Source of the DNA: Minisyncoccota bacterium
GTDB lineage: Bacteria > Patescibacteriota > Minisyncoccia > Phycocordibacterales > CAIZLB01
NCBI GenBank assembly: GCA_036405975.1
Contig: DASWWM010000013.1
Span: forward strand, 40,649-104,648
Direction of reading: 5' to 3'
Length of the DNA stretch: 64,000 nucleotides
The notes beneath the pieces were generated by a model. The model made no database searches. It was not told the origin of the DNA and worked only from the letters and a program-made list of their open reading frames with translations. Both the position numbers and the translations under genes were made by a program. Shown here in pieces: positions 1 to 44,840 of the stretch. Numbering within the stretch: the stretch's first letter is position 1; each line of letters opens with the position of its first letter.

Positions 1-3000
1 CAAGCAGCAGCGCATCAACACAGGTAGGTCTCGGCGCCGGAGCATCGTTCAATTCTGGCAGCTACTACAATACCGCGATTGGCTATTATGCGATGACCAA
101 TACAACGTCATCCAGAAACACAGCTGTCGGATCGGGCGCGCTTCGATTCAATGTCTCTGGAATCTCGAACGTCGCATTCGGTAATGATGCCGCTGGCAGT
201 TCGCTTGCCAGCTACAATGTCGCAATCGGTGATTCTGCCTTGTACAGCGCTACGAGCAGCGGAAGCAATACCGCTGTCGGTCATTCGGCCTTGCTTTATG
301 CTATCGGGTCAGGCAATACGGCTCTCGGATATCTCGCTGGGCAAAACATCACTTCGGGCTCGAACAATATCATCATCGGCAATAACATATATGCGCAAAG
401 TGCCACAGCTTCAAACCAGCTCAGCATCGGCAATATCATCTTCGGTACGGGCGTCGACGGTTCCGGCACAAGCGTATCGTCTGGAAACATAGGAATCGGA
501 ACGACGACTCCCGGCTACAGGCTCGTAGTGTCAGGCGATCTTAATCTCACTGGTGCATTCAGGGCCAACGGTTCGGCTGGTACCGCAGGCATGGTTCTCC
601 AGACGACAGGCACAGGAGCGCAGTGGGTCGCCACTTCGACTCTTGGCATCAGCGGTGGATCGAGTCTTTCGGGAGGCGCCAATGGCTATCTTGCGCGATG
701 GACTTCTGCGACTACGCTTGCGACAAGCTCGGTTCTCGACAGCGGTACGAGAGCGGGAATCAATGCGACATCATCCTCTTATACATTTAACATACAGGGT
801 ACTGCAGGTATCAGTGCCTTCAATGTTGCATCATCCACCGGAACATCGCTGCTCATGGTCGGCGCGGATGGAAATATCGGTATCGGTACGACAACCGCTG
901 CGTCAAAGTTGGTGGTGGTGGGTGATGCATACGTGACAGGATCACTTCGAGTTTCAAACGGTACTTTACCCGTTGTAATTGGCGCGACTGACGGAAATAC
1001 GCGAGCGACAAATGCACTTGATCTTCAGTCATATCGAACGTGGTCATCTCAGGTTGCAAGTGGGGTAAGATCTACAGCTATAGGAAACAGAAACACAGCG
1101 TCTGGTGTAGATTCAATTGCAATCGGACAACTTAACACTCCGTCTGCGCTAGTATCTATCGCTCTCGGTAATAGTAACAGCGCATTCGGAGATTACGCTG
1201 TTGCCATAGGAGCAAGCAATTCTGCCGCAAGCAACTCGCAGGTTATAGGAAAGTTGAATACGGCATTGTACTTAAATTCGTCCGTGGTGGGAATTTCAAA
1301 CACGCTGTACGCGGGTTACTCGCAGGCATTTGGAAATTCGAACAGTCTGTTTGGCCTTACAGGATCAGTCGGTATCGGTACTTCGAACACGGCATATGGC
1401 GGCAACGCGACGATAATCGGGCAGGACAACACCAGTTCCGACGACTACAATGTCACTCTCGGATACAATAACTATGCATTTTCTGGAACGAGCGTGACGA
1501 TCGGCCACAATAATTCGGTTGATAATGGCGTGGGAGGAGGCTCTGATGTCATCACTGTAGGATCCTATAACACTGTTTCGGGCACTTCTTTTTACACATC
1601 AGCATTCGGTTCTTACAATACGATATCAGGCAGTACGTACTACAACGGAGCGTTCGGGTACCAGAACTCCGTCTCTGGAAACAGCTCGTATGCGATCGGA
1701 AGAAGCAATGCTGTGAGCGGCGAAAACTCTTACGTATTCGGTAATGGAATAACAAATGGTATCGGGGGGTCAGTAATGATCGGTACGAGCAATACGAACA
1801 AGATGACCCTTACGACAAATGGTTCGCTTGGCATCGGCACGACGACTCCTGCCTCGAAGCTCACGGTTGTCGGCAATGCCGGCACCTCTCCGATGTTCAC
1901 TGTCGCCTCATCGACTGGTCGAACGGCATTTGTCGTTCGTGCTGATGGCAATGTCGGCATTGGTACATCTACTCCGAATACGAATCTGTATATCGATGCA
2001 AGCTCGGGTACGGGCAATATCGGAGGGTATCAAATGGTGATTGAGGGCTCGCCGACCAATACCGCCCTTCTCGGTTTTAAAGTCGCAAACAATGAATGGT
2101 CGATCGGGGCAAGCAGTCTCGATGAGGATAAGTTCATGATCACATCAAGTCTTGGCTATACTCAGGACGCACTCGTCATTAACAGGAGCACTGGCAATGT
2201 CGGCATAGGATCGTCTACTCCATCTGCCAAACTATCCATCTTTAATCTGAGCGGAAACCAAGACTTGATCAATGTCTCTTCTTCAACTGGAGCGTCGATG
2301 TTCACTGTGAAGGCTTCAGGCAATGTCGGCATCGGAACGACTACTCCGTTCGCTCGTCTGCAGGTCGCGGGAGTAACCACGTCATCGGGAATTCCGTTGC
2401 TCGTCACGGACTCAGCGGGTGCTTCAGTGATTGCTGCTCGAGACAGTGGAACGGTTTCAATAGGAGCCCTATCTGCAGGATTATCAGGTTCGCAGCTCTC
2501 AAAAACCGGCAGCTTGAATGTTTACGGAACCAGCGCAACAATAAACATCGGACATGATTCATTCGATTACGGATACAAAATGGTAATCGGTCCAAGGTCC
2601 ATCACTACTACTGAGACTTCCGAAGATTCAAACGCCACGCTCTTCCTGAATTCAGCTTCGGGGGGACGCGTGAGCATCGGGACTACGACTGATGCCTCCC
2701 CTTATACGCTTCGAGTCGGAGGCGACATCAACTTCGGCGGCAATCTCTATCAGGACGGAGTCCTCTTTACGGGCGGTGGCGGTGCGAGCCCTTGGACCGT
2801 TTCCGGCTCTAAGCTGTATGCCACAAGTACGTCTGTCGGTGTCGGAACAACCAATCCGTTGGCAGCATTTGATATCGGCACTTCGACAAACGGAGTTGGA
2901 ACCATGCAGCCGATGCTTCGGTTCAGCTACACTCCGGATGTCACGTACTCAAGTGCCATCAAGACAAGCACAGGCGGATCGATCGGCCAGAATCAGATGG

Positions 3001-5072
3001 GCTTCTTCATCACGCGTAACGGCACCGAGCTCAACCCGCTTCTCCTGTCAGACAGCGGTATTACGCTTACGGGAACGACTACCGTTGCAGGCATCTTGAA
3101 TCTCAACAGCGCAAATGCCGATACGGGCAAGGCTCTTACGGTGAGGAGCGTGACCAACGATGCACGAGACGGAGGTATCAAGATTGTCGCGCAGAACCAG
3201 AGCCAGTGGATGACGCTCGGTTGGGGCGGGTTGGGAAGCACGTATACGCTGGATTTCTCATCAGGGTCCGGTTCTGACATCACATTTGTCTCAGGCAACA
3301 ATACAGTCTTTTCGACTGGCAATGTGGGCGTAGGGACTACAGCTCCCGATGCGAAGCTCTCCATCATCGGAGGGACAAGCACTCCCGCTTTGAGCATCGC
3401 GACGAGCACAACCGGCATCAAGTTGCTTCACGTTACATCGACGACTACGGGTGTTATGGACTATGCGCGAGTCGGTATCGGAACGACTGGAAACTGGAGC
3501 GGTCCCGACCTTCTCGACCAGCTCACCGTCTCTGGTCGAGTGTACACTACATGGAGATACGCATCGTGTGACCTTGCGGGAATGAGCGTTATCGCGACAC
3601 TTCTTGCGAACACGGCAAACATATGTGGACAGTTCTCATTTGTGGAGGATGCTGACGGAGCGCTCGAGGTAATGACTACGGCGAATCCAAACTATATGAG
3701 GCTTCGAGCCTCAACCGCCGGAAGCCTTGCCGTCGGTGAAGGCGCTTCGCTGCGATCATGGGTCAATTTTGTGTCGACGAATGAGAACCCTATCCTTGAA
3801 GCATGGGTAAGGCCGCAAAGCGGAGTTACGAATGCAAGATACATGGTAGGGTTTATGGATTCCGCTACGGATGTTGCTGCTGACCCTACGAACGGGGTGT
3901 ATTTCAATGCGATTTCTAGCGGAGGAGGGAATTGGTTCGCGGTCAACAGGTCTGGCGGAGTCATGACATTCGTCGACACGGGCGTTGCGATATCGACTAC
4001 CGCATTCCAGAAGCTCCGAGTGGAAACGACGCCGGTCGCCTCGTACTTCTACATTGACGGGGTCCGCGTGGCTACCATAACTGCCGATATTCCAACGGCA
4101 AACATGTCACCGAATGCATCCGTCGCGCTTATTACCACTGCTGATGCGGTCAAGTATTTGGACATATCGCTTATCCGACTTTGGGTTGATGACCCTCTCG
4201 GCGGCTATCTAGCAGGCAACGAAGCGGACACGAACTTGATGAGGATGGCGGCCGGAGCATCGACGACGCTCGAATCTGTTCTCGACAGCGCGTCGACGAC
4301 GGCTGCGGCGAAAGGCCTCGTGACTGAAGCGGTGACGTCACTGTATGACTATGTCATCTCAGGCATCGAGTTCACTGCAGATGTCATTACGCGAAACGTT
4401 GTGGCGCTCAATGCGACAATAAAGAATGTCTTCGCAAGCGTCCTGTCGATCATGCCTGGAGGTTCGATCATCGTGCCGCAAGGAGAGAATCAGATTTCAG
4501 GATCAGCAACGCTTCCGCTCGGAATGACGTCGGTCACGGTCTTAAATTCTTCAGTGCTCGATACGAGCAAGATTCTCGTGACGCCGACGTCGCTCATGTC
4601 GACTCCGCTCATTGTGACGCAGAAGATTCCCGGCGTCGGATTCGTGGTGCAGACCATGAATGCGCAGTCGACGGACGCGACATTCGACTGGGTTATCATC
4701 CAGACATACAAGACCGGCAACGACACCAAGACGACTGGCGGCGCGGTATCGGGCAGCAGCAATGCCGGTTCTGGTGGCGACAACGCGGAGGTTCCGCCAG
4801 GCGGAGACACCCTGGGAGGGGGATCTGGCCAGTCGCCGGCATCGTCGACGCCGGACGGTACGAATCCCCCTGAAGGCGAAGGGTCTGACAGCTCAGGCGG
4901 TACGGGGACAGGCGGGGAAGCAGAGAATCCCGTGACTCCTCCTGCTGAAAATCCATCGGCAGGTGACCAGGATCCCCCTGCGATAGACCCTGCCCCTCTG
5001 CCTGAAATTTCAATGCCTGCTCCAGAGCCGACGGCTCCAAGTGACGGAGACGCGCCTGCTGGACAGTCATAA
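1..5072 (+). CDS. Giant fibre-like surface protein, 5' end outside window (reading frame open from nt 3). More than 20 repeats of a G-N-[IV]-G-I-G-T-[TS]-x-P...KL-x-V consensus, a central jelly-roll/LamG-like segment, and a Pro/Gly/Ser/Glu-rich low-complexity C-terminus.
   Basis: ORF 93..5072 is 1659 aa, and the frame has no stop back to nt 3. Repeated NIGIGTTTP/NVGIGTTNP motifs are visible throughout the translation. Stop codon is TAA. Confidence 0.7.
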   Translation, partial: SSSASTQVGLGAGASFNSGSYYNTAIGYYAMTNTTSSRNTAVGSGALRFNVSGISNVAFGNDAAGSSLASYNVAIGDSALYSATSSGSNTAVGHSALLYAIGSGNTALGYLAGQNITSGSNNIIIGNNIYAQSATASNQLSIGNIIFGTGVDGSGTSVSSGNIGIGTTTPGYRLVVSGDLNLTGAFRANGSAGTAGMVLQTTGTGAQWVATSTLGISGGSSLSGGANGYLARWTSATTLATSSVLDSGTRAGINATSSSYTFNIQGTAGISAFNVASSTGTSLLMVGADGNIGIGTTTAASKLVVVGDAYVTGSLRVSNGTLPVVIGATDGNTRATNALDLQSYRTWSSQVASGVRSTAIGNRNTASGVDSIAIGQLNTPSALVSIALGNSNSAFGDYAVAIGASNSAASNSQVIGKLNTALYLNSSVVGISNTLYAGYSQAFGNSNSLFGLTGSVGIGTSNTAYGGNATIIGQDNTSSDDYNVTLGYNNYAFSGTSVTIGHNNSVDNGVGGGSDVITVGSYNTVSGTSFYTSAFGSYNTISGSTYYNGAFGYQNSVSGNSSYAIGRSNAVSGENSYVFGNGITNGIGGSVMIGTSNTNKMTLTTNGSLGIGTTTPASKLTVVGNAGTSPMFTVASSTGRTAFVVRADGNVGIGTSTPNTNLYIDASSGTGNIGGYQMVIEGSPTNTALLGFKVANNEWSIGASSLDEDKFMITSSLGYTQDALVINRSTGNVGIGSSTPSAKLSIFNLSGNQDLINVSSSTGASMFTVKASGNVGIGTTTPFARLQVAGVTTSSGIPLLVTDSAGASVIAARDSGTVSIGALSAGLSGSQLSKTGSLNVYGTSATINIGHDSFDYGYKMVIGPRSITTTETSEDSNATLFLNSASGGRVSIGTTTDASPYTLRVGGDINFGGNLYQDGVLFTGGGGASPWTVSGSKLYATSTSVGVGTTNPLAAFDIGTSTNGVGTMQPMLRFSYTPDVTYSSAIKTSTGGSIGQNQMGFFITRNGTELNPLLLSDSGITLTGTTTVAGILNLNSANADTGKALTVRSVTNDARDGGIKIVAQNQSQWMTLGWGGLGSTYTLDFSSGSGSDITFVSGNNTVFSTGNVGVGTTAPDAKLSIIGGTSTPALSIATSTTGIKLLHVTSTTTGVMDYARVGIGTTGNWSGPDLLDQLTVSGRVYTTWRYASCDLAGMSVIATLLANTANICGQFSFVEDADGALEVMTTANPNYMRLRASTAGSLAVGEGASLRSWVNFVSTNENPILEAWVRPQSGVTNARYMVGFMDSATDVAADPTNGVYFNAISSGGGNWFAVNRSGGVMTFVDTGVAISTTAFQKLRVETTPVASYFYIDGVRVATITADIPTANMSPNASVALITTADAVKYLDISLIRLWVDDPLGGYLAGNEADTNLMRMAAGASTTLESVLDSASTTAAAKGLVTEAVTSLYDYVISGIEFTADVITRNVVALNATIKNVFASVLSIMPGGSIIVPQGENQISGSATLPLGMTSVTVLNSSVLDTSKILVTPTSLMSTPLIVTQKIPGVGFVVQTMNAQSTDATFDWVIIQTYKTGNDTKTTGGAVSGSSNAGSGGDNAEVPPGGDTLGGGSGQSPASSTPDGTNPPEGEGSDSSGGTGTGGEAENPVTPPAENPSAGDQDPPAIDPAPLPEISMPAPEPTAPSDGDAPAGQS

Positions 5073-26879: not shown

Positions 26880-26930
26880 ATTTCACAATCTCGATTTCGA
26901 AATTGAGGATTAATGAGGTAATATAAAGGT

Positions 26931-29900
26931 ATGTTGTTCTCGGAGGACGAGGTATTTTTTATGCACCCAAAAAAGCGCAAGCCGAATCTGGCCAAAAGGA
27001 TCGCATCTGCGGTCTTGATTGTTGCACTGGCTCTGCCTGCATTGTTTGTAAGCCCTCAGGATGCGAAGGCTGCCGTGCTTGAAGGGTCGGCAAATGCCGC
27101 ATATACGCTTGCGATGGGCCGGGATAAGGGCTTTGACGGTGTCGTTTCCAAGGTGATCTCGCTGTCAGATGGCAGTTTCATCGCAGGGGGATCTTTTGCT
27201 GCATACAATGGCCAGACCGCTCGGAGGCTTGCGAAAATATCCGCTTCCGGCACGCTTGATACTGATTTCAATATAAATTTAGGGACCGGTTTGCCAACGT
27301 CAAATAACGTATCTGACATAGCATTGCAGCCGGACGGCAAGCTGGTCATCATAGGAGGCTTCACCACATTCAATGGCGTAACGACGAACAGGATCATGAG
27401 GCTGAATGCTGATGGAACGAGGGATGCCACATTCTCGATTGGCACGGGGTTGAATGAATTTCCAAGAGAGGTGTCCGTCAGGTCCGACGGAAAGATTGTC
27501 GTTGCGGGAGATTTCACTTCATATAATGGAACGAGCATAAATAGAATAGCTCTCCTGAACGCTGACGGGTCTCTCGATATGGCATTCAGGACCGCGCTTG
27601 GAACTGGTCCGAACGCGCTGCTTACTGCTGCGCATGTGCAGCCTGACCGAAAGATCGTAATAAGCGGAAATTTCACGTCAGTCGCCAGCACCTCTGTCAA
27701 TAGAATTGCCCGGCTTAACGAGGACGGAAGCATCGACTCGGCATTCGTCGCCAATGTCGGTGCCGGAATTCCCTCGAATGCCGGTGCCGTGATCACCCTC
27801 TCTGACGGTCGGATCTTGTTGGGAGGAAGCTTCACGACATTCAATGGGTCCAGTACCGCGAGAGCTGTCAGGCTGAATTCGGACGGCACGATAAATGCGC
27901 TCTTCGCTTCCGGCTTCAACGGTTCGGTGTATGACTTCTTGGAGCTTTCAAACGGGCAGGTGATGGCAGCCGGAGTATTCTCCACTTATAGGGGTGTAAC
28001 AAGAAGGGCGCTTGTGCTCATGAACGAAGACCTCACTGCCGATACTGCTTTTTCTGCAAATATCGGGAGCGGGTTTGTCGGTTCTGATTCTGTGAGCAGC
28101 GTGATTCGCCTGACGGACGGATCATTGGTATTCGCGGGAGGATTCAGCGAGGTATCTGCTCGGCAAATGGGAAACATTCTCAAGACTGATTCGGCCGGAG
28201 TAGTAGACAGGGATTTCGACCCGAACTTCGGATTCGGATTCAATGACCATGTCAGGTCCGCAATCCAGAGGCCGGATGGAAAAATCATATACATGGGAGC
28301 CTTTACTCGATTCTCAGACGAATCCACGAGGCTGAACTCTGCCGTAGAGATGCTCGCACAGTTCGATTCTGCAAATGTACTCGATACGTCATTCGATACG
28401 AATATCGGCACGGGGTTCGAAGGGTCATCGCCTCTCGGGGGTGCATTGCAGCCGGACGGCAAGCTGGTCATCATGGGAGGCTTCACCACATTCAATGGCG
28501 TAACGACGAACAGGATCATTCGCCTCAATGAAGACGGAACAAGGGACGGATCGTTCATCATCGGAACGGGCTTCAACGGCTCGGTTTCCGCCGTCGCTCT
28601 TCAGCCTGACGGAAAAATTATTGCGGGCGGAAATTTCACCACATACCAGGGATCGAGCACTGCCCGTATCGCTCGGTTGAACAGCGATGGCAGCATAGAC
28701 CAGACATTCAGGCAGAATGTCGGAACCGGCGCACCCGGAACGGTCAGCGCAATAGCCGTCCAGTCCGACGGAAAGATCGTGCTTGCCGGAACGTTCACCA
28801 CTTTCAACGGAGTTACTGTGAATAGGGTTGTCAGGCTTGAGTCTGACGGAACCGTCGATGCGACGTTTACCTCGAATGCCGGAACCGCTTTCAGCTCTGG
28901 CGGAGTGGCTGCTCTTGCCCTTCAGTCTGACGGAAAGATCCTTGCTGTCGGTAGTTTCACCTCATACAAAGGTACCTCGGTAGGAGGGGTGGTTCGGATA
29001 AACTCAGACGGAACTTCTGATGCGGACTTCAATCAGAACGTCGGTTCTGGCGCAACGGGCAGCGGTTCTGCAAGTACCGTGCTCGTTCAGCGTGACGGGA
29101 AAGTGGTCGTTGGCGGAGATTTCACGGTTTACAAGTCCGTGATCAGGAATAGGGTGGTGCGGTTGGAAGCAAATGGAACCGTAGATTCCACATTTTCGAC
29201 AAATAACGGCAGCGGTTTTAACTATGCTGCGTACTCGCTCACTCTCCTGAACGATAACAATATATTGGCTGGAGGGAATTTCACGAGATCGGCAGGTACG
29301 TATGCGAACCGCGCATCTCTTCTGTTGGGCCCCGAAATGCCACCGCCGGATGTCCCTCCGCCAACCGACCTGGATGTTTCTTCTGATACGGGAAGGTCGA
29401 GCGTGGACAATATAACTTCTGATACCACCCCGACATTCTCTGGAACGGCATCCACCTCGGCGTCTGTTTATTTGTACGGCGTCGCCACTACGACTGGACT
29501 GATCGGCACTGCCACTGCCGATGGTTCTGGAAATTACTCGGTGACATCCTCTCCTCTGGCCGATGGGACATATTCCATGGTTGTCGTGCAGGAACTATAT
29601 GGCGTGCGTTCCGCAACATCTTCGCCGATCAATGTAACCATTGACGCCACGGCCCCGTCGCTCTTCTCGCTGACTCCGTCAAATGGAGCGACGGGAGTGT
29701 CCGTATCTTCGTCCTTGCGAATCCGGTTGGATGAGAGCATCGCAACGACGTCTGGAACGGCCCGTCTGTACAGGGCTTCTGACGATTTCCTCGTCCAGTC
29801 AGCGTCCACTGCATCAAGCAGCGTATCCATTCAAAGCGGGCACAGTCTCGTATTCCAGCCTTCGCAGAATCTTTCGTATAACACTTCGTACTACGTGCTC

Positions 29901-32156
29901 ATGGATGCCGGAGTCATCGGAGACATTGCCGGAAATCAGTACTCAGGACTGGCCGCCTCATCATCGTGGGCGTTTACAACATCTGCTACGCCGACGCCTG
30001 CCACTCCAGGTTTGCCTGACCTGTCTGTGTCATCGGATACGGGAACATCAAGCACTGACAATATAACTTCTGATGCCACCCCGACATTCACAGGCTCTGT
30101 CTCTGCAAATGCACTCGTATACTTCTATCACGATACGAGCGTCCTGCTTGGCACGACTACCGCAAATGGATCAGGAAGCTATGCATTCACCGCAGGAGGT
30201 CTTGCTGACGGAACCTACGGTATAACCGCAGTGCAGGAGGTGCTTGGCATGAAGTCTGCGACTTCCTCGAGCCTTTCCGTGACTATCGATACGGCGGCAC
30301 CTGTGCTCGCCTTTGCTTCTCCTGTCGACGGCTCCACTTCCAATTCATGGAATCCATCAGTGAATTGGGGAGGATCGAACTCCTGTGCGTACTCAATCGA
30401 CGGGTCTGCTTTCATGCATTCGGCATGCGGTCAAAACGGATCGGACATTCCGTCTCCTGGAATCGGAAATCACGTGCTCGTAAGCAGGGGGACGGACACT
30501 GCCGGCAACAACGGATATGCGACATCGAGCTTTGCCCTTGCCGGCACTCCTCCCGCGATCTCCCAGGTCGCATCGACGACGGCTGTCACGACTGCGACAG
30601 TTTCCTGGACAACCGACATCCCTGCGACTTCGATTGTCCAGTATGGACTGACGACTGCATACGGGTCGACGACGAGTCTCGGCATCTCTACTTCCACCTC
30701 GCATTCAGTGGGCTTATCAGGATTGAGCCCTCTGACGCTCTATCATTTCCGAGTTCTTTCGGCTGATGAGTACGGACAGACATCGACTTCCTCAGGCTTC
30801 ACGTTTAGGACGGCCTCTATCGCCGTTCCTTCAACTCCGGACAGGCCGGATCTCGATACTGCTTCTGATACGGGCGTATCGAATACCGATAATGTAACGT
30901 CCGTAGTGACTCCGACATTCAACGGAACGTCGACTCCCGGAGCCCTCATTTACTTGTACGAGGCGATCGGAGGAACTTTGCTTGGCACGACTACGTCTGA
31001 CGGATCAGGGATATATTCGATTGTGTCCGCTCCGATGTCGAATGGCGTCAAGGGGATCGCCATTGTTCAGGAGTTGCTTGGGGTAAGGTCAGCTACCTCG
31101 ACCAGGCTTTCGGTGACCATTGATGCCGATATTCCAGCGCCATCAGTGAGCTCTCCCGCTGACGGATCAACCGTCAGCGCATGGAATCCTTCAATAGATT
31201 GGGGCGATGCAACAATCTGCGAATACTCTTTCGCGAGCTCGTCTTTCATGGCCGTGGACTGTTCGCTAAACGGGGCAGATATTCCGGATCCGGGAGAAGG
31301 GAGTCATTCATTCATCGTCAAGGCGACTGATCAGGCCGGAAACGAATTTCAGATTTACTTCATAGTGACGCTTCAGTTGCCGCCGATTGCAATACATGCG
31401 ATTGCCTCAAGTACCGCGACGACGTCGGCGCTCATTACGTGGTCGACAAACAACCTCTCCACTTCGGTCGTGCATTACGGAACGTCCTCCTCGTACGGGT
31501 CAACGACAAGTCTGGGCGCTACGGCTAGGAATTCACATTCTGTCGGTATTGGAGGATTGTTGCCGTCGACGCTATATTATTTCCAAATCCAATCAACCGA
31601 TCAGCACGGTCATTCAACGAGCACTGTCGGGCTTTCATTTATTACCAAGGACATCGCTTCTTCGTCGGGTCCTGGTCCGGAACCTGACCCAGGATCAGAC
31701 TCCGGTCTTAGTTCGACAAGGCCTTCTGGCATGCAGGATGGCGTCGGATACAATTTAGGATTCAGGTCGTATCCGACGCTGACTCCGGAAGAAATTCAGC
31801 GAATATTCGGCCTATATCTCTCTGCACAGGCGACATCAGCGATACCTGTGTCTGCCGCTCCGGCTGCCGCAGGCACTTCGTCGTCTGCTCCGTTGATTTA
31901 CGAGTTTAAAAGGGATTTGCGCGTTGGCCTTACGGGCAATGATGTAAAGGCTCTTCAGGTATTCCTTAACTCAAACGGATATTCCGTGTCTGCAAGCGGA
32001 GTGGGTTCAGCCGGAAATGAGACTTCATACTTCGGCCAGGCGACAAGAGCGGCACTTGCTCGGCTGCAGTCATCAAATGGCATACGGCCTGCAGTCGGCT
32101 ACTTCGGCCAGGTTACGCGTGCATTCGTCAACGGGCTCATGGGTATCGGCCGTTAG
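26931..32156 (+). CDS. Giant secreted surface protein: delta-60-type beta-propeller repeats, Ig-like domains, FN3 domains, C-terminal peptidoglycan-binding domain
   Basis: Signal peptide; about 12 repeats of G-x-F-T-x-[FY]-N-G-x(6-8)-[IV]-x-R-L-N-x-D-G-[ST]-x-D; repeated ...SSDTG.S..DNITSD.TPTF.G... Ig-like units; FN3-like ...VSWTTD.PATS.VQYG.T..YGS...; C-terminal LRVGLTGNDVKALQVFLNSNGY...YFGQATRAALARLQ. Confidence 0.7.
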   Translation: MLFSEDEVFFMHPKKRKPNLAKRIASAVLIVALALPALFVSPQDAKAAVLEGSANAAYTLAMGRDKGFDGVVSKVISLSDGSFIAGGSFAAYNGQTARRLAKISASGTLDTDFNINLGTGLPTSNNVSDIALQPDGKLVIIGGFTTFNGVTTNRIMRLNADGTRDATFSIGTGLNEFPREVSVRSDGKIVVAGDFTSYNGTSINRIALLNADGSLDMAFRTALGTGPNALLTAAHVQPDRKIVISGNFTSVASTSVNRIARLNEDGSIDSAFVANVGAGIPSNAGAVITLSDGRILLGGSFTTFNGSSTARAVRLNSDGTINALFASGFNGSVYDFLELSNGQVMAAGVFSTYRGVTRRALVLMNEDLTADTAFSANIGSGFVGSDSVSSVIRLTDGSLVFAGGFSEVSARQMGNILKTDSAGVVDRDFDPNFGFGFNDHVRSAIQRPDGKIIYMGAFTRFSDESTRLNSAVEMLAQFDSANVLDTSFDTNIGTGFEGSSPLGGALQPDGKLVIMGGFTTFNGVTTNRIIRLNEDGTRDGSFIIGTGFNGSVSAVALQPDGKIIAGGNFTTYQGSSTARIARLNSDGSIDQTFRQNVGTGAPGTVSAIAVQSDGKIVLAGTFTTFNGVTVNRVVRLESDGTVDATFTSNAGTAFSSGGVAALALQSDGKILAVGSFTSYKGTSVGGVVRINSDGTSDADFNQNVGSGATGSGSASTVLVQRDGKVVVGGDFTVYKSVIRNRVVRLEANGTVDSTFSTNNGSGFNYAAYSLTLLNDNNILAGGNFTRSAGTYANRASLLLGPEMPPPDVPPPTDLDVSSDTGRSSVDNITSDTTPTFSGTASTSASVYLYGVATTTGLIGTATADGSGNYSVTSSPLADGTYSMVVVQELYGVRSATSSPINVTIDATAPSLFSLTPSNGATGVSVSSSLRIRLDESIATTSGTARLYRASDDFLVQSASTASSSVSIQSGHSLVFQPSQNLSYNTSYYVLMDAGVIGDIAGNQYSGLAASSSWAFTTSATPTPATPGLPDLSVSSDTGTSSTDNITSDATPTFTGSVSANALVYFYHDTSVLLGTTTANGSGSYAFTAGGLADGTYGITAVQEVLGMKSATSSSLSVTIDTAAPVLAFASPVDGSTSNSWNPSVNWGGSNSCAYSIDGSAFMHSACGQNGSDIPSPGIGNHVLVSRGTDTAGNNGYATSSFALAGTPPAISQVASTTAVTTATVSWTTDIPATSIVQYGLTTAYGSTTSLGISTSTSHSVGLSGLSPLTLYHFRVLSADEYGQTSTSSGFTFRTASIAVPSTPDRPDLDTASDTGVSNTDNVTSVVTPTFNGTSTPGALIYLYEAIGGTLLGTTTSDGSGIYSIVSAPMSNGVKGIAIVQELLGVRSATSTRLSVTIDADIPAPSVSSPADGSTVSAWNPSIDWGDATICEYSFASSSFMAVDCSLNGADIPDPGEGSHSFIVKATDQAGNEFQIYFIVTLQLPPIAIHAIASSTATTSALITWSTNNLSTSVVHYGTSSSYGSTTSLGATARNSHSVGIGGLLPSTLYYFQIQSTDQHGHSTSTVGLSFITKDIASSSGPGPEPDPGSDSGLSSTRPSGMQDGVGYNLGFRSYPTLTPEEIQRIFGLYLSAQATSAIPVSAAPAAAGTSSSAPLIYEFKRDLRVGLTGNDVKALQVFLNSNGYSVSASGVGSAGNETSYFGQATRAALARLQSSNGIRPAVGYFGQVTRAFVNGLMGIGR

Positions 32157-39501: not shown

Positions 39502-39858
39502 TTACTGTTTTGCAGCTTCCTTCGGCTCGCCAAGCTTGGTCTTGAACAGCTTGTTCATCGCCCTGATGGCCACGAAGACCGAAAGGCCTACGATGATGAA
39601 GTTCATCAGGCTATTGATGAAGTTTCCGTACTTGATGGCTCCATAGGCGAATGCGCTGAAGTCCGGCTTTCCGAATGCCGTCGCGATAGCTCCGAGAATC
39701 ACGTCCTTCACGAGAGAGTCGACGATGGCATTGAATGCCGTACCGATGACGACACCGACTGCAAGCTCGATAGCATTTCCCTTGATGGCAAAGGTCTTGA
39801 AATCCTCGAAGAAATCCTTCACTCCGTCCTTTGCTGGTGTCAGGTTGATTGGTGTCAT
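39502..39858 (-). CDS. mscL: Large-conductance mechanosensitive channel
   Basis: FKTFAIKGNAIELAVGVVIGTAFNAIVDSLVKDVI is the conserved MscL TM1 region. 118 aa. Confidence 0.8.
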   Translation of the reverse strand: MTPINLTPAKDGVKDFFEDFKTFAIKGNAIELAVGVVIGTAFNAIVDSLVKDVILGAIATAFGKPDFSAFAYGAIKYGNFINSLMNFIIVGLSVFVAIRAMNKLFKTKLGEPKEAAKQ

Positions 39859-39862
39859 TGCT

Positions 39863-40576
39863 TTAGAGGGCTAGGCTTGATGAGTCGGCCGCTTCCGAAG
39901 TTGTAGCGCCTGACTGGCTCGTTACTTCCTCGAAGATTGCCTTGAGCGTCTCGTATCGCTGTGCTCCTCGGATAGCCGTCTTTCCATCGATGATAAGAGT
40001 GGGAGTCGACTGGATGTTCATGGCCTGTGCGTCCTTCGCATCCTGGTCTACAATTGCGTCGTACTTGCTCCTGTTTGCCGTGAAGTCAGCCTTGTACTTT
40101 GAGACATCGAGTCCGATGCTTGCTGCGTACTTGTCATAGAGGGCGATTCTCTCCGGCTGCGAGATTCCGTACTTGGTCCATTCTGCCTGCTGCTCGAAGA
40201 GCATGTCGTGCATTTCCTTGAACTTGCCCTGTTCTCCGGCTGCGAATGCGACTGCTGCCGCTTCCTTTGAGTTCGCATGGATAGGGATGATTCGGAAAGC
40301 GAAGTCTACCTGGTCGCCGTATTCTGCAAGGAACTTCTTGAGTTCCGGCTGAAGTGCTGCACATGCAGGGCATTCGAAGTCTCCGAACTCCACGATCTGG
40401 AGCTTCGGGTCAGCTCCCGTGATTCGAACTGTTTCCGGCCTGATAAGGTTTTCGGCGGTGATAGCCGTGGGTGCCGCGCTTTGCTGCGAGGCCTTTCCTG
40501 CCATTACCATTCCGAAAATGATGACCGCGACGGTGATGACGCCGATGATCGATATGATTTTTGTTTCTGAGTTCAT
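39863..40576 (-). CDS. DsbA/BdbD-like thiol:disulfide oxidoreductase, membrane-anchored
   Basis: Thioredoxin fold with CPAC active site (FGDFECPACAAL). N-terminal TM helix. Confidence 0.7.
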   Translation of the reverse strand: MNSETKIISIIGVITVAVIIFGMVMAGKASQQSAAPTAITAENLIRPETVRITGADPKLQIVEFGDFECPACAALQPELKKFLAEYGDQVDFAFRIIPIHANSKEAAAVAFAAGEQGKFKEMHDMLFEQQAEWTKYGISQPERIALYDKYAASIGLDVSKYKADFTANRSKYDAIVDQDAKDAQAMNIQSTPTLIIDGKTAIRGAQRYETLKAIFEEVTSQSGATTSEAADSSSLAL

Positions 40577-40661
40577 GTGAAGATTATATCAAAAAACCGG
40601 GCCCTAGAAATGGCCCGGTTTATGAAGATTCATGGCCTGGAGCGGCCGGAAAATCCAGAGA

Positions 40662-41117
40662 TTATGCCTGGATTCCTTTCGCCGCTTCTCGCTCGATGAA
40701 CTTCTTTCGCTCAAGCATCAATACGATGATGACTGAGAATGCAGTAAAGGCCAGGAAGGGGATGGTGATGAATCCGAAGATCTCGAAATACCGAGTGGTG
40801 CATGAGACTCCTGCCTCGCATGGAGCGAGCGTATCCGGAATGATCTTGTAATAGAGAAGCACGTGGAATGCCGAGATGCACCATCCGATAAGGGCTGGCC
40901 AGAGCACGAAGTAATGCGTATTCTTGTCTCTCAGCACGATTCCTGTTGCAAGCCCTATCGCCAGAGGGAACATGGCGATTCGCTGATACCAGCAGAGGAC
41001 GCAAGGCTTGAGAAGCATGACGTCGCTGAAGTACATGCTGCCGAGGAATGCCACGATTGCCTGGACTAGGGCAAGATAGAGGGCGTTTTTTCCGATAAAG
41101 TTTCTGAACGTTTGCAT
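40662..41117 (-). CDS. Disulfide bond formation protein B (DsbB/BdbC-like)
   Basis: 4-TM protein with CVLCWYQR (first Cys pair) and a second pair in APCEAGVSC. Start taken at the internal Met. Confidence 0.7.
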   Translation of the reverse strand: MQTFRNFIGKNALYLALVQAIVAFLGSMYFSDVMLLKPCVLCWYQRIAMFPLAIGLATGIVLRDKNTHYFVLWPALIGWCISAFHVLLYYKIIPDTLAPCEAGVSCTTRYFEIFGFITIPFLAFTAFSVIIVLMLERKKFIEREAAKGIQA

Positions 41118-41758: not shown

Positions 41759-42640
41759 CTACCGCTCTTCTCGGTACTTTTTATTTTTAGTGAACTTGGC
41801 AATTGTCCTCTCTTTTCTAGTCTGAGCGTTTCCTTCAAATATTTGGGACCTGAGCGCTTCAAGTTCGCTTGTTATTTTTGAGAATGCGTCATTTTCTTCG
41901 TTGGCGACGAGCTCAGGATTTGCATAAGCCGGGTCAAATGAGAGCGATGTCGTGACGCTGCGGCCGACTCCTTTTTCAATGGAGTCGGTGTCGGCCGCTG
42001 ACTTTACCTTCGTAGCAATGAATCCGTAAGGGGTGCTGAGCTCGTCCAAAAGTCCTGCAATGAGCTTCGCGGTCTTGATGCTGTGAGGGGTGTTCTCAAC
42101 GCAGATGTAAGCCATGTCGAAGCCACTCGGAATTCCTGTGCCCACGCTATCTGAACTTGCTTTTTCATCAACTACTACGAACTCATTTTCTTCAAGCTCT
42201 ACGAGTGGCAGATATACTTTCATGGATGTTGCAAGCTGATGGCTGCAGCCGCCGCCTTGGACAAGCTGTTCGGGATGCGGGCCCATTGCCATAAGCTTCA
42301 GATTCGGTTTTATTTCTTGCGAATACTTTTCGCTGAATGGATCGGTGTTTCCGAATGGCTTGAAAGTTGGAATCGAGTATGAATCTTTTGTAAAAAGATC
42401 ATCGTAAAAATCTCCGGGAAGGATTGCCGATTGCTCATAGATATCTGGACGAGCATTAAGCCCAAGGTATTGAAAATCGGGATGGCTTTCTCCGGAAATG
42501 CCAAAATTGAACATCATGTCCATATTATGGTCGAGATCCAGTGCCATGACCTTGTTTCCTTGGTCGTGCAGAAAACGCGTAAACCTATGGCTTGCTGTGG
42601 ACTTTCCTGAACCTCCTTTTCCCAGAAATCCGATGATCAT
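41759..42640 (-). CDS. MinD/ParA-superfamily P-loop ATPase, CooC-like
   Basis: Deviant Walker A GKGGSGKST at the extreme N-terminus, followed by VMALDLDHNMDM. This resembles the CooC/CbiA-type LAIDADPD block. Confidence 0.6.
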   Translation of the reverse strand: MIIGFLGKGGSGKSTASHRFTRFLHDQGNKVMALDLDHNMDMMFNFGISGESHPDFQYLGLNARPDIYEQSAILPGDFYDDLFTKDSYSIPTFKPFGNTDPFSEKYSQEIKPNLKLMAMGPHPEQLVQGGGCSHQLATSMKVYLPLVELEENEFVVVDEKASSDSVGTGIPSGFDMAYICVENTPHSIKTAKLIAGLLDELSTPYGFIATKVKSAADTDSIEKGVGRSVTTSLSFDPAYANPELVANEENDAFSKITSELEALRSQIFEGNAQTRKERTIAKFTKNKKYREER

Positions 42641-42768
42641 TTTTGTTTGGGATTATTTATAAAAATTCTTGTATATAAAAACCCTGCACTGCCGGTTGGC
42701 AGGGCAGGGGAAGGCATTTCATCCTTCAGTTAACGGCACGTATGGACGCGCTGCTGGTGCTGCTGCAA

Positions 42769-42936
42769 TTAGCAGCCTGGGCAGCTCGAGTCGCCGCAGC
42801 TGCATGGTGCCATGCTGCCGCCGTCGAGGCGCGGGCCGTGACGGAGCAGGCGGGGCAGCTTGGACAGGGCGGCTTTGAGCGTAGCTGGAAGCACAGAGCG
42901 GTTTGCTGTCGGGGGTGGAGTCGGCTGAGTTTTCAT
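42769..42936 (-). CDS. Candidate small ORF (55 aa, Cys-rich C-terminus) inside an anomalously GC-rich segment. Coding status uncertain.
   Basis: MKTQPTPPPTANRSVLPATLKAALSKLPRLLRHGPRLDGGSMAPCSCGDSSCPGC, with a TAA stop. It is followed on the minus strand by hairpin 42682-42710 plus TTTTT. Overlapping ORFs exist in other frames. Confidence 0.3.
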   Translation of the reverse strand: MKTQPTPPPTANRSVLPATLKAALSKLPRLLRHGPRLDGGSMAPCSCGDSSCPGC

Positions 42937-43035
42937 GGGTGCTGAGTTTCGATTTGTACAATGCCATTCATTTCGCAAGTCAGGGTGACCCGGAGATTCA
43001 TGGGTGCATTCAAGATAGCATATGATAATTTCAAA

Positions 43036-43050
43036 TGCAACTATATTGCA
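43036..43050 (+). promoter_or_regulatory. Inverted repeat TGCAA-N5-TTGCA upstream of the Fur-family gene (candidate operator)
   Basis: tgcaactatattgca, 41-55 nt upstream of the ATG at 43091, in an AT-rich stretch containing GATAAT. Confidence 0.25.
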
Positions 43051-43090
43051 ATGGAGACATTGGACGGGCATTGTGATAGGCTTATTGCAT

Positions 43091-43609
43091 ATGGTAAAGG
43101 CATTAGACAAAACCGGGATAAGGCCAGAACATGAGCAGATTCTGGTCAAGGCTGGATACAAGCTTACGAAGCCGAGGAGGCTTATATTGAATGCGCTTTA
43201 TGAAAGCGAAGGCCTCGCTTCGGCTGATGATATTTGGGAAGCTCTCAAACGAGACGCCGTTGACCGAGTTACGGCATACCGAACGCTTGGCCTATTTGAG
43301 CAGCTTGGCATAGTGAGACATGCGATGTCTCGAAGCGGAATCAAAGTATACGAAGTGGCTCATCATCATGAGCACGCTGATCACTGCCACCATGCCGTAT
43401 GCGAAGGCTGCGGTGTTACTGAACATATTGATGATCCTGAAATCGAAAAGGCTTTGGAACTGCTCGCGCGAAAACTTAAAAAGGTCAAATTCGTCAAAGA
43501 CCATACCCTTGAATTCTTCGGCGAATGCACGTCATGTCATCCGAAGCGCTCAGTTAAAGTCGCGAATCGGGCTAAGGTTGCTAAGAAGCCGATAGTTAAG
43601 AAGAAGTAA
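43091..43609 (+). CDS. Fur-family metalloregulator (Zur/Fur-like) with a Lys-rich C-terminal tail
   Basis: N-terminal winged-helix RLILNALYES...; metal-site cluster HHHEHADHCHH...CEGCG...C..CH. Start at the internal Met. Confidence 0.75.
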   Translation: MVKALDKTGIRPEHEQILVKAGYKLTKPRRLILNALYESEGLASADDIWEALKRDAVDRVTAYRTLGLFEQLGIVRHAMSRSGIKVYEVAHHHEHADHCHHAVCEGCGVTEHIDDPEIEKALELLARKLKKVKFVKDHTLEFFGECTSCHPKRSVKVANRAKVAKKPIVKKK

Positions 43610-43616
43610 AATCTGC

Positions 43617-44840
43617 ATGAAGAGAATTCTTGTAACAGCCTTTATAGCGCTCGCTTCATTTGCCATTCAGGCGAAGCCTGTTTCTGCCGCAGAATTGATG
43701 CTCGATACACATGAGCTCGTAAAGTCACGAGTTGAAGAAGTATTGTCTCGCGAGGAAAAGGTCATTCCTGGAACTGAAATCGATGCCGTTCACCAGACGC
43801 TTCGCGTAAAAGTTCTCGAGGGTGCCAGCGAAGGCAAGACATTCGATGTTGAAAATGACCGATTCGATTTGCAGCCAGGCGATACGTTCTATCTTCAGAT
43901 TACATCCTATCCTGACGGCCAAACGACATATGCTGTGGCAGAGCCCTATAGAATGACGCCCATCTTTATCTTCGCTGCACTCTTTATCGTCCTGGTACTG
44001 GTATTTGGCGGCATGCAGGGTATCCGCGGACTCCTGAGCCTGTTTGGAAGCCTTTTCGTACTCTTTTATATATTCCTTCCTGAGCTCCTCGCTGGACGCT
44101 CTCCCATACTTCTCAGCCTTGCTGTCTCGTCGCTCATCATTATCCTGGGCTCATACATTACTCACGGATTCAACAAAACTACTACGTCGGCCGTGCTGGG
44201 AATGCTTGCAACCGTTCTCTTCACGGGATTCTTGGCCGTATACGCAGTAAATGTCACAAAGCTTACGGGTTTCTTCTCAGAAGACGTCGTCTATCTGCAT
44301 TTCAATACTGATGGAAAGATAAATATGCAGGGACTTCTTTTGGGTGGAATTCTCATTGGTCTTCTCGGTGTGCTCTATGATGCTGCAATCAGTCAGGCTG
44401 TGGCGATCGAAGAGCTTGCCGTTCATGCTCCGCATCTTTCTAGGAGAAAGCTCTTCGAGCGCGCGATGCGAATCGGCCGGGAGCATATCGGCGCTCTCAT
44501 TGATACGCTGGCGCTTGCATATGTGGGCGCCTCGCTACCGCTCCTGTTGCTGTTCTATTCTTCTGCATCGACTTCGCTCATGAGCATTCTGAATCGAGAA
44601 GACTTTGCCACTGAAATCATGCGAACAATCATCGGAAGCATCGGACTCATTCTGGCCGTCCCGATAACTTCGTTTGTCGCTGTGCTCATGCTTAAGAAGA
44701 AGGATGGTGCCGGAACAAGCGGTCCGCATTCGCATGGAGCTCATAGGCATGATACGAACGACGATGCCGACTGCGACGATCCGATCGGCCATTCTCACGG
44801 CCATGTTTGCGGACATATCAGGAAAGAGCTTGGGAAATAG
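43617..44840 (+). CDS. YibE/F-family membrane protein with a His-rich C-terminal tail
   Basis: Signal peptide, extracytoplasmic domain, then polytopic TM region (YibE/F-like architecture). C-terminus HSHGAHRHD...HSHGHVCGH. Confidence 0.6.
   Translation: MKRILVTAFIALASFAIQAKPVSAAELMLDTHELVKSRVEEVLSREEKVIPGTEIDAVHQTLRVKVLEGASEGKTFDVENDRFDLQPGDTFYLQITSYPDGQTTYAVAEPYRMTPIFIFAALFIVLVLVFGGMQGIRGLLSLFGSLFVLFYIFLPELLAGRSPILLSLAVSSLIIILGSYITHGFNKTTTSAVLGMLATVLFTGFLAVYAVNVTKLTGFFSEDVVYLHFNTDGKINMQGLLLGGILIGLLGVLYDAAISQAVAIEELAVHAPHLSRRKLFERAMRIGREHIGALIDTLALAYVGASLPLLLLFYSSASTSLMSILNREDFATEIMRTIIGSIGLILAVPITSFVAVLMLKKKDGAGTSGPHSHGAHRHDTNDDADCDDPIGHSHGHVCGHIRKELGK

Follow-up and report, generated by a model that had tools for sequence, protein, structure and literature searches.

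What is encoded by the GC-rich island that lies between the genes of a Fur-family regulator and a CooC-like ATPase in the genome of a Minisyncoccota bacterium? The island was found in a stretch of 64,000 nucleotides (nt) of contig DASWWM010000013.1 (positions 40,649 to 104,648 of the forward strand; this whole stretch is called the window here), and the six public contigs that contain it carry no predicted gene there. A first-pass annotation had proposed a minus-strand open reading frame (ORF) of 55 amino acids (aa) ending in CSCGDSSCPGC, whose translation was checked and is correct; we call it the mini-ORF (Table 1). Judged by sequence comparison, the island is a genuine unannotated protein-coding gene, rather than a non-coding RNA (ncRNA) or foreign DNA. 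The window ATPase is identical to a protein of a Candidatus Paceibacterota metagenome-assembled genome, and its exact sequence also occurs in runs SRR11449179-86. We somewhat favour the reading that the mini-ORF, as first cistron, opens a metal-homeostasis operon repressed by the Fur-family protein in a bacterium of the candidate phyla radiation (CPR; Candidatus Paceibacterota), and that its product is a metal-binding partner of the ATPase.

A conserved reading frame in the GC-rich island

The nearest homologues of the window ATPase, in two loci referred to as L007 and L008, are 57-59% identical to it and stand in the same gene order: YibE/F, Fur, a gap, and the ATPase. Both gaps hold a mini-ORF on the ATPase strand, in the same slot and with the same tail (MAPCSCGDPGCSGC and ACSNCGSSSCSGC, each read to the stop codon). 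The complete peptides, again read to the stop codon, are MKRILAFASSITAAFKGSPKPASKTTGHGHMAPCSCGDPGCSGC for L008 (tail CSCGDPGCSGC) and MRRFIKKAWTRLKKACSNCGSSSCSGC for L007 (tail CSNCGSSSCSGC). When the whole intergenic region was compared in six frames by tblastx, the peptide frame gave the top match, GSMAPCSCGDSSCPGC against GHMAPCSCGDPGCSGC, the stop codon included in both. Across the 15 aligned codons of the window and L008 there are 5 synonymous differences (GCA/GCG, CCA/CCT, AGC/TCC for Ser, GGC/GGT and TAA/TAG) and 3 non-synonymous ones, all of the latter between cysteines. Outside the operator and the terminator described below, conservation with the relatives is limited to the last ~15 codons of this one frame and is codon-periodic. 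The first-pass annotation had asked whether the frame or only the nucleotides are conserved, and in the syntenic loci it is the peptide frame. Beyond L007 and L008, scans of metagenomes and genomes returned no relative closer than 43% ATPase identity.

The opposite view is that the island has no gene product, being a structured ncRNA or riboswitch 5' of the ATPase, a foreign fragment, or compositional noise with chance frames. GC-rich islands in genomes of moderate G+C are often structured RNAs, and the GC island is real: its best 200-nt segment (42682-42881) has a G+C of 0.67 against a 64-kb mean of 0.513 (sd 0.043), and is the second-highest GC peak of the 64 kb, with 0.09% of 200-nt segments as GC-rich. 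The G+C is 0.655 at 42700-42899 and 0.61 at 42800-42999, and the surroundings lie at ~0.45-0.55; the interval first described as about two-thirds G+C, 42720-42960, has a slightly lower value of 0.627. As had been noted, the island is open in several registers on both strands, with four stop-free frames in all; the fold z-scores against shuffles are slightly below zero (minus strand -1.86, plus strand -2.01), which is unremarkable for GC-rich sequence. The lack of a gene call on the six public contigs also fits this view, as does an antisense island frame that was called as a gene at the end of one short public contig (L004, positions 2-121, equal to window 42742-42861 on the plus strand); the latter call is probably an artefact of stop-poor, GC-rich sequence.

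Taken against the codon-periodic conservation, these points leave the absence of a gene product very improbable. The G+C of the mini-ORF at codon positions 1/2/3 is 0.64/0.67/0.73, compared with 0.54/0.43/0.585 in the long ORFs of the window, so that the excess is greatest at position 2 (0.67 vs 0.43), as amino-acid content predicts; since it peaks there, the island is explained by the amino-acid composition of the peptide (Pro/Ala/Gly/Cys/Ser/Arg). In all 12 of the 12 peptide loci described below, the mini-ORF exceeds the G+C of its own locus by 0.11-0.27, irrespective of genome GC. Because the mini-ORF is GC-richer than its surroundings in every related locus, the idea of foreign DNA was set aside; distant relatives, too, have this module in this slot, and the excess of G+C tracks amino-acid content. 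A structured ncRNA is likewise disfavoured: divergence is concentrated at third codon positions, and Rfam matched no family in the island even at E<=10, where the best value over 42500-43200 was 0.89 and came from eukaryotic small nucleolar RNA and microRNA models. At gathering scores, Rfam detected three transfer RNAs elsewhere in the window and nothing in the island. The comparative evidence thus supports the reading preferred at first pass, that of a gene for a small, Cys-rich peptide, perhaps a metal binder, in metal-regulatory surroundings.

Two further compositional features of the window were recorded. Its top GC peak (0.685, 4616-5039) falls in the Gly/Ser/Pro/Ala-rich C-terminal tail of a repetitive protein of 1659 aa (93-5072, plus strand), and a second giant protein, of 1741 aa, is encoded at 26931-32156 (plus strand). 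Another ORF with a Cys-rich tail, at 26927-27082, overlaps the start of the 1741-aa gene out of frame and was rejected as a chance frame.

The mini-ORF product and its start

The window peptide contains 4 Cys in 55 residues (7%), every one of them within the last 11. The Cys tail alone is conserved; the N-terminal half, which had been called leader-like, is conserved in neither length nor sequence. The start codon of the window mini-ORF is uncertain, and an in-frame Met42 is kept in L008. Immediately upstream is a 22-aa ORF (uORF) whose stop overlaps the ATG of the mini-ORF as ATGA; L008 has an equivalent uORF of 28 aa (437..523) with the same overlap at the peptide ATG (520), and L007 has no uORF and carries a strong Shine-Dalgarno (SD) sequence (GGAAGGAG) in its place. 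This overlap may reflect translational coupling in SD-poor genomes, or chance. Just 5' of the window ATG, at 42943-42954 on the minus strand, there is also a 12-mer, AATCGAAACTCA, that is identical in L008 (752-763); the L008 copy lies 3' of the terminator, ahead of the ATPase, and with E=0.06 the match may be due to chance.

Genome annotation systematically overlooks small proteins, and does so even more in uncultured CPR/Patescibacteria; this conserved micropeptide family has escaped nearly every gene call. A word-indexed search of 5.8 billion clusters with the 55-aa peptide gave no candidate, and phmmer against 1.84 billion representatives returned only three long repetitive proteins, matched through the P/T/A-rich N-terminal half. 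No match to the window peptide was found in Pfam or NCBIfam. Exact look-up of ten peptides in a collection of 15 billion proteins found 0/10 present. A profile built from 12 peptides of the family retrieved only those of L042 and L037, as unnamed entries with over-long N-termini that had been called from spurious upstream starts lying inside the operator.

Cys-rich mini-ORFs in other ATPase loci

The wider survey covered 114 non-redundant loci with this ATPase family, all from Patescibacteria-type assemblies, of which 105 could be scored upstream. In these, the 350 nt ahead of the ATPase were scored for a mini-ORF whose final 25 residues include four or more Cys. Such a mini-ORF was present on the sense strand in 11/105 loci and on the antisense strand in 2/105; those on the sense strand end 70-170 nt before the ATPase. 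L049 (5 Cys) is a twelfth peptide locus. In nine further CPR loci, which belong to a second ATPase clade, the mini-ORFs occupy the same position and encode 29-42 aa, and lengths over the family range from 27 to 55 aa. All 12 peptide loci share one layout: palindrome, mini-ORF, predicted terminator, a leader without SD, and the CooC-like ATPase.

In the ATPase tree the peptide loci form two separate clades, one of the window, L007 and L008 and one of eight. Every member with enough upstream DNA carries the mini-ORF (11/11; L102, the ninth of the larger clade, lacks upstream DNA). The peptides of a group B, such as MKTIVRLPSLSKPTVIKSAGCGCSGACTCGGG (L033), MNPYTIVRLPAITIRSSSCGCSGACSCGQG (L103) and MKIVRIPVVGTPRPTSASSCCGCSGSCSCGAG (L121), have a CGCSGAC motif and 4-5 Cys in 30-32 aa. 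Their CGCSGAC.CG block is again under codon-level constraint, with 19 of 27 pairwise nucleotide differences at position 3 and 16 synonymous against 4 non-synonymous codon changes. A group C (L019, L096, L049) combines a CPxCG knuckle with a second Cys cluster in 32-40 aa; its peptides include MWKLFASLRAALCPSCGKPKKGSAKPCDGDTCTCGR (L096) and MKYIRKIISSLIGRCLRCNKPVGNHSCAGGECDGSCGG (L042). Four further context look-ups (P0056, P0071, P0040, P0091) led to other clades and showed no peptide.

Operator, promoter and terminator

The regulator gene was confirmed as Fur-family and divergent. Between it and the mini-ORF is a 17-bp palindrome, the presumed Fur-family operator, shared by the divergent promoters; the locus may be regarded, on this basis, as a Fur-family-controlled metal locus with a putative operator. 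The palindrome is the sole site in the 64 kb with at most one mismatch to the consensus (the window copy has one), and 620 kb of related loci contain 104 matches, compared with our estimate of ~1-2 from chance alone. Over the 44 nt that surround the window copy, the window and L008 share 77% identity. In loci that lack the peptide, the palindrome lies 11-70 nt before the ATPase ATG, and in some other loci it precedes a fur gene that is then followed by the ATPase. In all 12 peptide loci it is upstream of the mini-ORF and none is found between peptide and ATPase. Since the palindrome always precedes the mini-ORF and never intervenes before the ATPase, the mini-ORF is the cistron that comes first after the presumed operator. 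One half of the palindrome, the right one, coincides with the -35 element of a putative sigma-70-type promoter, and the same arrangement recurs in L007 (TTGCAT-17-TAATAT) and L008 (TTGCAT-17-TAATCT). More generally, the palindrome is widespread in Patescibacteria loci with this ATPase and a Fur-family regulator, often as two copies 41-45 bp apart between divergent genes, and it marks out a regulon that can now be followed through these genomes.

On the 3' side, the imperfect 12-bp hairpin with a TTTTT run that had been noticed on the minus strand is present (CCCTGCCCTGCC-AACC-GGCAGTGCAGGG), 59 nt past the mini-ORF stop. A hairpin with a T-run separates mini-ORF and ATPase in 12/12 peptide loci, with energies of -15.5 to -22 kcal/mol and a distance of 12-59 nt from the stop. 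Among six loci, 95% of the hairpin positions are paired and 4 pairs have changed on both sides, with the shape GGGG-UU-GGGNGC/GCNCCC-UU-CCCC retained; the arm CCCTGCCCTGC is identical in L008. The leader from terminator to ATPase start is A/T- and A/C-rich and G-poor, and overlaps a weak promoter-like match (TTTATA-16-AATAAT, 42679..42652, minus strand). The first-pass description of the ORF as terminator-flanked has to be amended, as there is a single terminator, on the downstream side only. Nor is the ORF fully a self-contained transcription unit, given that the locus has just one operator and promoter, that the ORF is the first gene they serve, and that the ATPase is without a separate operator.

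Such a layout is also that of a leader-peptide attenuator, in which progress of the ribosome over the terminal Cys codons would set terminator formation and hence transcription of the ATPase operon, the peptide having no function in trans and the signal being either Cys-tRNA supply or metal acting on the nascent Cys tail. Like trpL, hisL and the mycobacterial polycysteine uORFs, the 12 loci combine a short ORF whose critical codons (here 4-6 Cys) cluster at its end, an intrinsic terminator, and the genes behind; one regulated promoter serves the whole, and in all 12 the structural gene after the terminator lacks an operator, a clear promoter and an SD of its own. Where the peptide is missing, the ATPase comes directly after this operator, so that ORF plus terminator looks like an inserted regulatory cassette. 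Polycysteine uORFs are Cys-responsive attenuators in mycobacteria (bioRxiv 10.1101/834739), which offers a precedent.

Classical attenuation was not supported when the RNA was folded without the 3' arm and with a ribosome-stall mask placed on the first Cys of the cluster; comparison with shuffled upstream sequence gave no antiterminator. The terminator stays in the minimum-free-energy fold under the stall masks, and its 5' arm pairs with upstream RNA no better than with shuffles in 12/12 loci (0.0 kcal/mol in the window). As the stop-to-hairpin distance spans 12-59 nt, a fixed geometry of ribosome occlusion is unlikely. Unlike in leader-peptide attenuators, the Cys residues have metal-site-like spacing instead of forming runs, and both this spacing and the non-Cys residues (CSCGD, CxGC, CGCSGAC, CPxCG) are kept under synonymous change, although the counting of codons needs neither. 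The downstream genes are also unrelated to cysteine supply or biosynthesis. For these reasons we regard the attenuator as unlikely, while still giving it more credit than the other rivals, and return to a peptide that acts on metal.

The ATPase and the proposed role of the peptide

The downstream gene on the same strand encodes, as first described, a CbiA/CooC-like ATPase. Its family has an invariant deviant Walker A motif (GKGGSGKS) and an invariant C132-S-H134 (codons 42239-42247, minus strand). With the family profile, the best solved relative is CooC1 (3KJE; E=1.7e-15, full length), whose C112-Y-C114 aligns exactly with the C-S-H motif, so that the second ligand position is His, not Cys. 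In CooC1 the Cys-X-Cys chelates metal at the dimer interface (PMC3792862). Throughout the ATPase family, the Cys-X-Cys of CooC1 is replaced by this invariant Cys-Ser-His. A dimer of the ATPase would form a Cys2His2 site, more typical of zinc than of nickel.

The neighbouring genes also point to metals. The YibE/F-family membrane protein, noted at first pass for its His-rich character, accompanies the ATPase in 35/114 loci, and six peptide loci have a gene for a ZIP-family transporter beside the ATPase or immediately behind it. The tails of the YibE/F proteins are rich in His and Cys (window 44720-44840; L019, L033, L037, L048, L096; for example GPHSHGAHRHDTNDDADCDDPIGHSHGHVCGH), which suggests a metal-transport or metal-sensing role of this uncharacterised family. 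Genes for carbon monoxide dehydrogenase/acetyl-CoA synthase, cooT and cooJ were absent from the window locus and the related loci examined.

The mechanism that we propose would begin with scarcity of the metal corepressor, upon which the Fur-family protein would leave the operator. Transcription would start just 3' of the palindrome, with its right half doubling as the -35, and the mRNA would be translated into the ~55-aa micropeptide, conserved in its C-x-C-x4-C-x2-C tail only. The terminator would make a short peptide transcript the main product, and a fraction of polymerases would pass it into the ATPase gene and those behind. The Cys4 tail could bind a thiophilic divalent metal, for which Zn(II) is the leading candidate, with Ni, Fe and Cu(I) as others. 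As a small metal carrier or partner, the peptide would give metal to the ATPase or take metal from it; ATP-dependent dimerisation of the ATPase would build the Cys2His2 site from two C-S-H motifs, and the variable basic/amphipathic N-terminal part of the peptide might serve as a docking element.

Several observations weigh against this proposal. The exact tail motif is common to just two close relatives, and the N-terminal 40 residues of the window peptide are an unconserved, low-complexity sequence. When the peptides of both clades are aligned together, three positions are invariant, namely the start Met and two of the Cys; homology between the clades is not demonstrable, and for this reason the trait may have arisen twice. 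About 90% of the loci with this ATPase have no peptide, which is therefore not obligatory for ATPase function. The start codon in the window lacks an SD, a lack that is uninformative in this genome because SD-like motifs are rare (5/44 long ORFs of the window). As no promoter is obvious behind the strong terminator, expression of the ATPase would be explained only by read-through. The regulator is equidistant from the structures of Nur, Zur, Fur and PerR and all its NCBIfam subtype scores are below cut-off, so its metal specificity is not assignable. The induction of a Cys4 binder by a Fur/Zur-type repressor, that is by metal scarcity, would be the reverse of classical metallothionein logic. 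Lastly, a cytoplasmic metal carrier does not explain the association with the disulfide-forming genes dsbB and dsbA.

This association is found in few loci: DsbB occurs in 10/114 ATPase loci, 8 of which are peptide loci, and a ninth peptide locus has DsbA. Near the ATPase, the two are met almost solely where the Cys-rich peptide or a 243-aa Cys-cluster protein is present (window 39863-41117, L007, L016, L019, L022, L033, L037, L042, L049, L096). It would be accounted for if the peptide were exported and disulfide-bonded or otherwise matured, as a bacteriocin-like product, a ribosomally synthesised and post-translationally modified peptide, or an extracellular metal scavenger, with DsbB/DsbA oxidising the Cys tail outside the cell and the variable N-terminal part serving as leader. 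The association also outlasts a change of gene order: the window, L007 and L033-type loci have their Dsb genes downstream, and in L019, L096 and L048 these genes are divergent and upstream. A precursor gene, a hairpin and then the processing genes is the typical order of ribosomal peptide clusters (nisA, sboA, pqqA), and sublancin has dedicated bdb genes. In the window peptide, a Gly-Gly directly precedes the Cys tail.

That Gly-Gly is found in neither L007 nor L008, however, and the N-termini are not signal peptides. The loci examined contain no modification enzyme, peptidase-containing ATP-binding cassette exporter or radical S-adenosylmethionine gene, which also speaks against the ribosomally made natural product envisaged at first pass. 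Common descent may account for the Dsb association, which comes down to two or three clades. A role in the handling of metal inside the cell is indicated by the CooC-like ATPase, together with the Fur operator and the ZIP transporter. An exported peptide is hence improbable in our view.

Comparison with known systems

The proposed pairing of peptide and ATPase would parallel, by analogy, ArsD-ArsA, CooT/CooJ-CooC, HypA-HypB and UreE-UreG, in which a small Cys/His-rich protein is likewise encoded beside or upstream of a dimerising nucleoside triphosphatase (NTPase) with a deviant Walker A motif; in those systems the NTPase has a metal site at its dimer interface. The CooC system comes closest in sequence on the ATPase side, with C-S-H on the CooC1 Cys-X-Cys; the site here is Cys-X-His, not Cys-X-Cys. 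The peptide itself has no sequence similarity to these SIMIBI accessory proteins and is far smaller (27-55 aa), no CODH, hydrogenase, urease or ars genes lie nearby, and the operator is of the Fur family.

A second likeness is to the Zur-regulated COG0523 proteins (ZigA, ZagA, YeiR, Zng1), which similarly join an NTPase metallochaperone candidate to a Fur-family operator and importers (here ZIP and YibE/F). Comparative genomics of this kind tied COG0523 to the Zur regulon (PMC2770081). The enzyme here differs in being a CooC/MinD-like ATPase, not a G3E GTPase. We know of no micropeptide partner for COG0523. A counterpart of these GTPases might exist in CPR bacteria, namely a Fur/Zur-controlled metallochaperone system in which a CooC-like Cys-X-His ATPase is served by a dedicated Cys4 micropeptide of 27-55 aa that delivers or accepts the metal, and in which the terminator might gate the ATPase by metal or thiol status; we offer this fuller scheme tentatively, as a possibility that falls short of being probable.

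A short Cys motif of this kind can bind metal on its own: a 14-residue fragment of CopY with the motif CxCxxxxCxC dimerises and is enough for the binding of Zn(II) and Cu(I) (PMC12648655). The window tail, CxCxxxxCxxC set in Gly/Ser/Asp/Pro, resembles this C-terminal motif, with the difference that it belongs to a free-standing gene product, not to a repressor domain. The likeness to the Cu-metallothionein of Neurospora and to mycobacterial MymT is compositional, the group B peptides having CGCSGAC. The Neurospora protein has the sequence GDCGCSGASSCNCGSGCSCSNCGSK. Metallothioneins were taken to contain ~15-30% Cys, arranged in Cys-X-Cys and Cys-X-X-Cys motifs, a range that the window peptide does not reach, and with 4 Cys in 55 residues it fits a single site, not a metal-thiolate cluster; derepression by scarcity would also be the opposite of metal induction. 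The CPxCG knuckle and second Cys cluster of group C recall CPxCG-type zinc-ribbon micro-proteins, such as the haloarchaeal ones, and Cys4 ribosomal proteins such as L36. The window peptide ends in CPGC, but it does not have two loop-separated CxxC knuckles and there is no detectable homology. A fixed slot ahead of a CooC-like ATPase is peculiar to this peptide family in comparison with the CPxCG proteins.

The peptides are thus a new small-protein family in a CPR metal-homeostasis module, akin in kind to metallochaperone accessories and Cys4 motifs and outside any described family; a literature search on Cys-rich small proteins of Patescibacteria found nothing. If the peptide is the metal partner of the ATPase, it would give a first handle on the allocation of zinc or another metal in minimal, host-dependent bacteria. 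It would also assign a function to a CooC-like ATPase family that occurs across Patescibacteria and is uncharacterised, and provide a very small, synthesisable model of metal transfer to a SIMIBI NTPase.

Other features of the locus

Table 1 Features of the GC-rich island and its surroundings in the window
Feature	Position	Strand	Remarks
MscL	39502-39858	-	Downstream of ATPase
DsbA-like thioredoxin, membrane-anchored	39863-40576	-	Downstream of ATPase
DsbB	40662-41117	-	Downstream of ATPase
Hypothetical protein, 125 aa	41257-41634	-	Between ATPase and DsbB; no family match
CooC-like deviant-Walker-A ATPase, 293 aa	41759..42640	-	Pfam CbiA
Leader, terminator to ATPase start	42641..42676	-	36 nt; A/T- and A/C-rich, G-poor; no SD, no operator
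Predicted intrinsic terminator	42677..42709	-	Hairpin 42709..42682, 12 pairs, one mismatch, -20.4 kcal/mol, then TTTTT 42681..42677
Mini-ORF, 55 aa and stop	42769..42936	-	ATG 42936 to TAA 42769; MKTQPTPPPTANRSVLPATLKAALSKLPRLLRHGPRLDGGSMAPCSCGDSSCPGC, then stop
C-terminal Cys4 motif CSCGDSSCPGC (C-x-C-x4-C-x2-C)	42772..42804	-	Proposed metal-binding site; kept in L007 and L008
Upstream ORF, 22 aa	42933..43001	-	MNLRVTLTCEMNGIVQIETQHP, then stop; TGA overlaps mini-ORF ATG (ATGA)
Stop-free frame, 82 aa	42719..42967	-	ORF list
Stop-free frame	42769..43161	-	ORF list
Stop-free frame	42669..42878	+	ORF list
Stop-free frame	42742..42945	+	ORF list
Putative sigma-70-type promoter of mini-ORF	43012..43040	-	-35 TTGCAT (43040..43035), 17-nt spacer, -10 TATCTT (43017..43012)
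Alternative promoter TTGCAA-18-TATCAT	43051..43022	-	Consensus scan
17-bp palindrome, presumed Fur-family operator	43035..43051		ATGCAACTATATTGCAA; consensus ATGCAA-N5-TTGCAT; shared by divergent promoters
Fur-family metalloregulator, 172 aa as called on public contigs	43091..43609	+	Pfam FUR 2.6e-20
YibE/F-family membrane protein, His/Cys-rich C-terminal tail	43617..44840	+	Co-oriented with regulator; Pfam YibE_F 8.4e-69

Of the genes behind the ATPase, that of the 125-aa hypothetical protein is absent from L007; L022 encodes a protein 31% identical to it, likewise after the ATPase (4022-4369). L007 has an acidic ORF of 69 aa between the fur gene and the operator (4463-4672), to which nothing in the window corresponds.

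By the identity of their YibE/F, DsbB and MurJ proteins, the closest relatives of the window are L016 and L022. In these two loci the slot between operator and ATPase is taken by an uncharacterised protein of ~243 aa (2077-2808 in L016, 2142-2870 in L022; L115, ~1940-2398, was recorded alongside them). It has no Pfam match, its gene is followed by a terminator, and it contains an internal Cys cluster, HGCRCDCC in L016 and HDHSCSCC in L022. L016 carries a second copy of the operator ahead of the ATPase.

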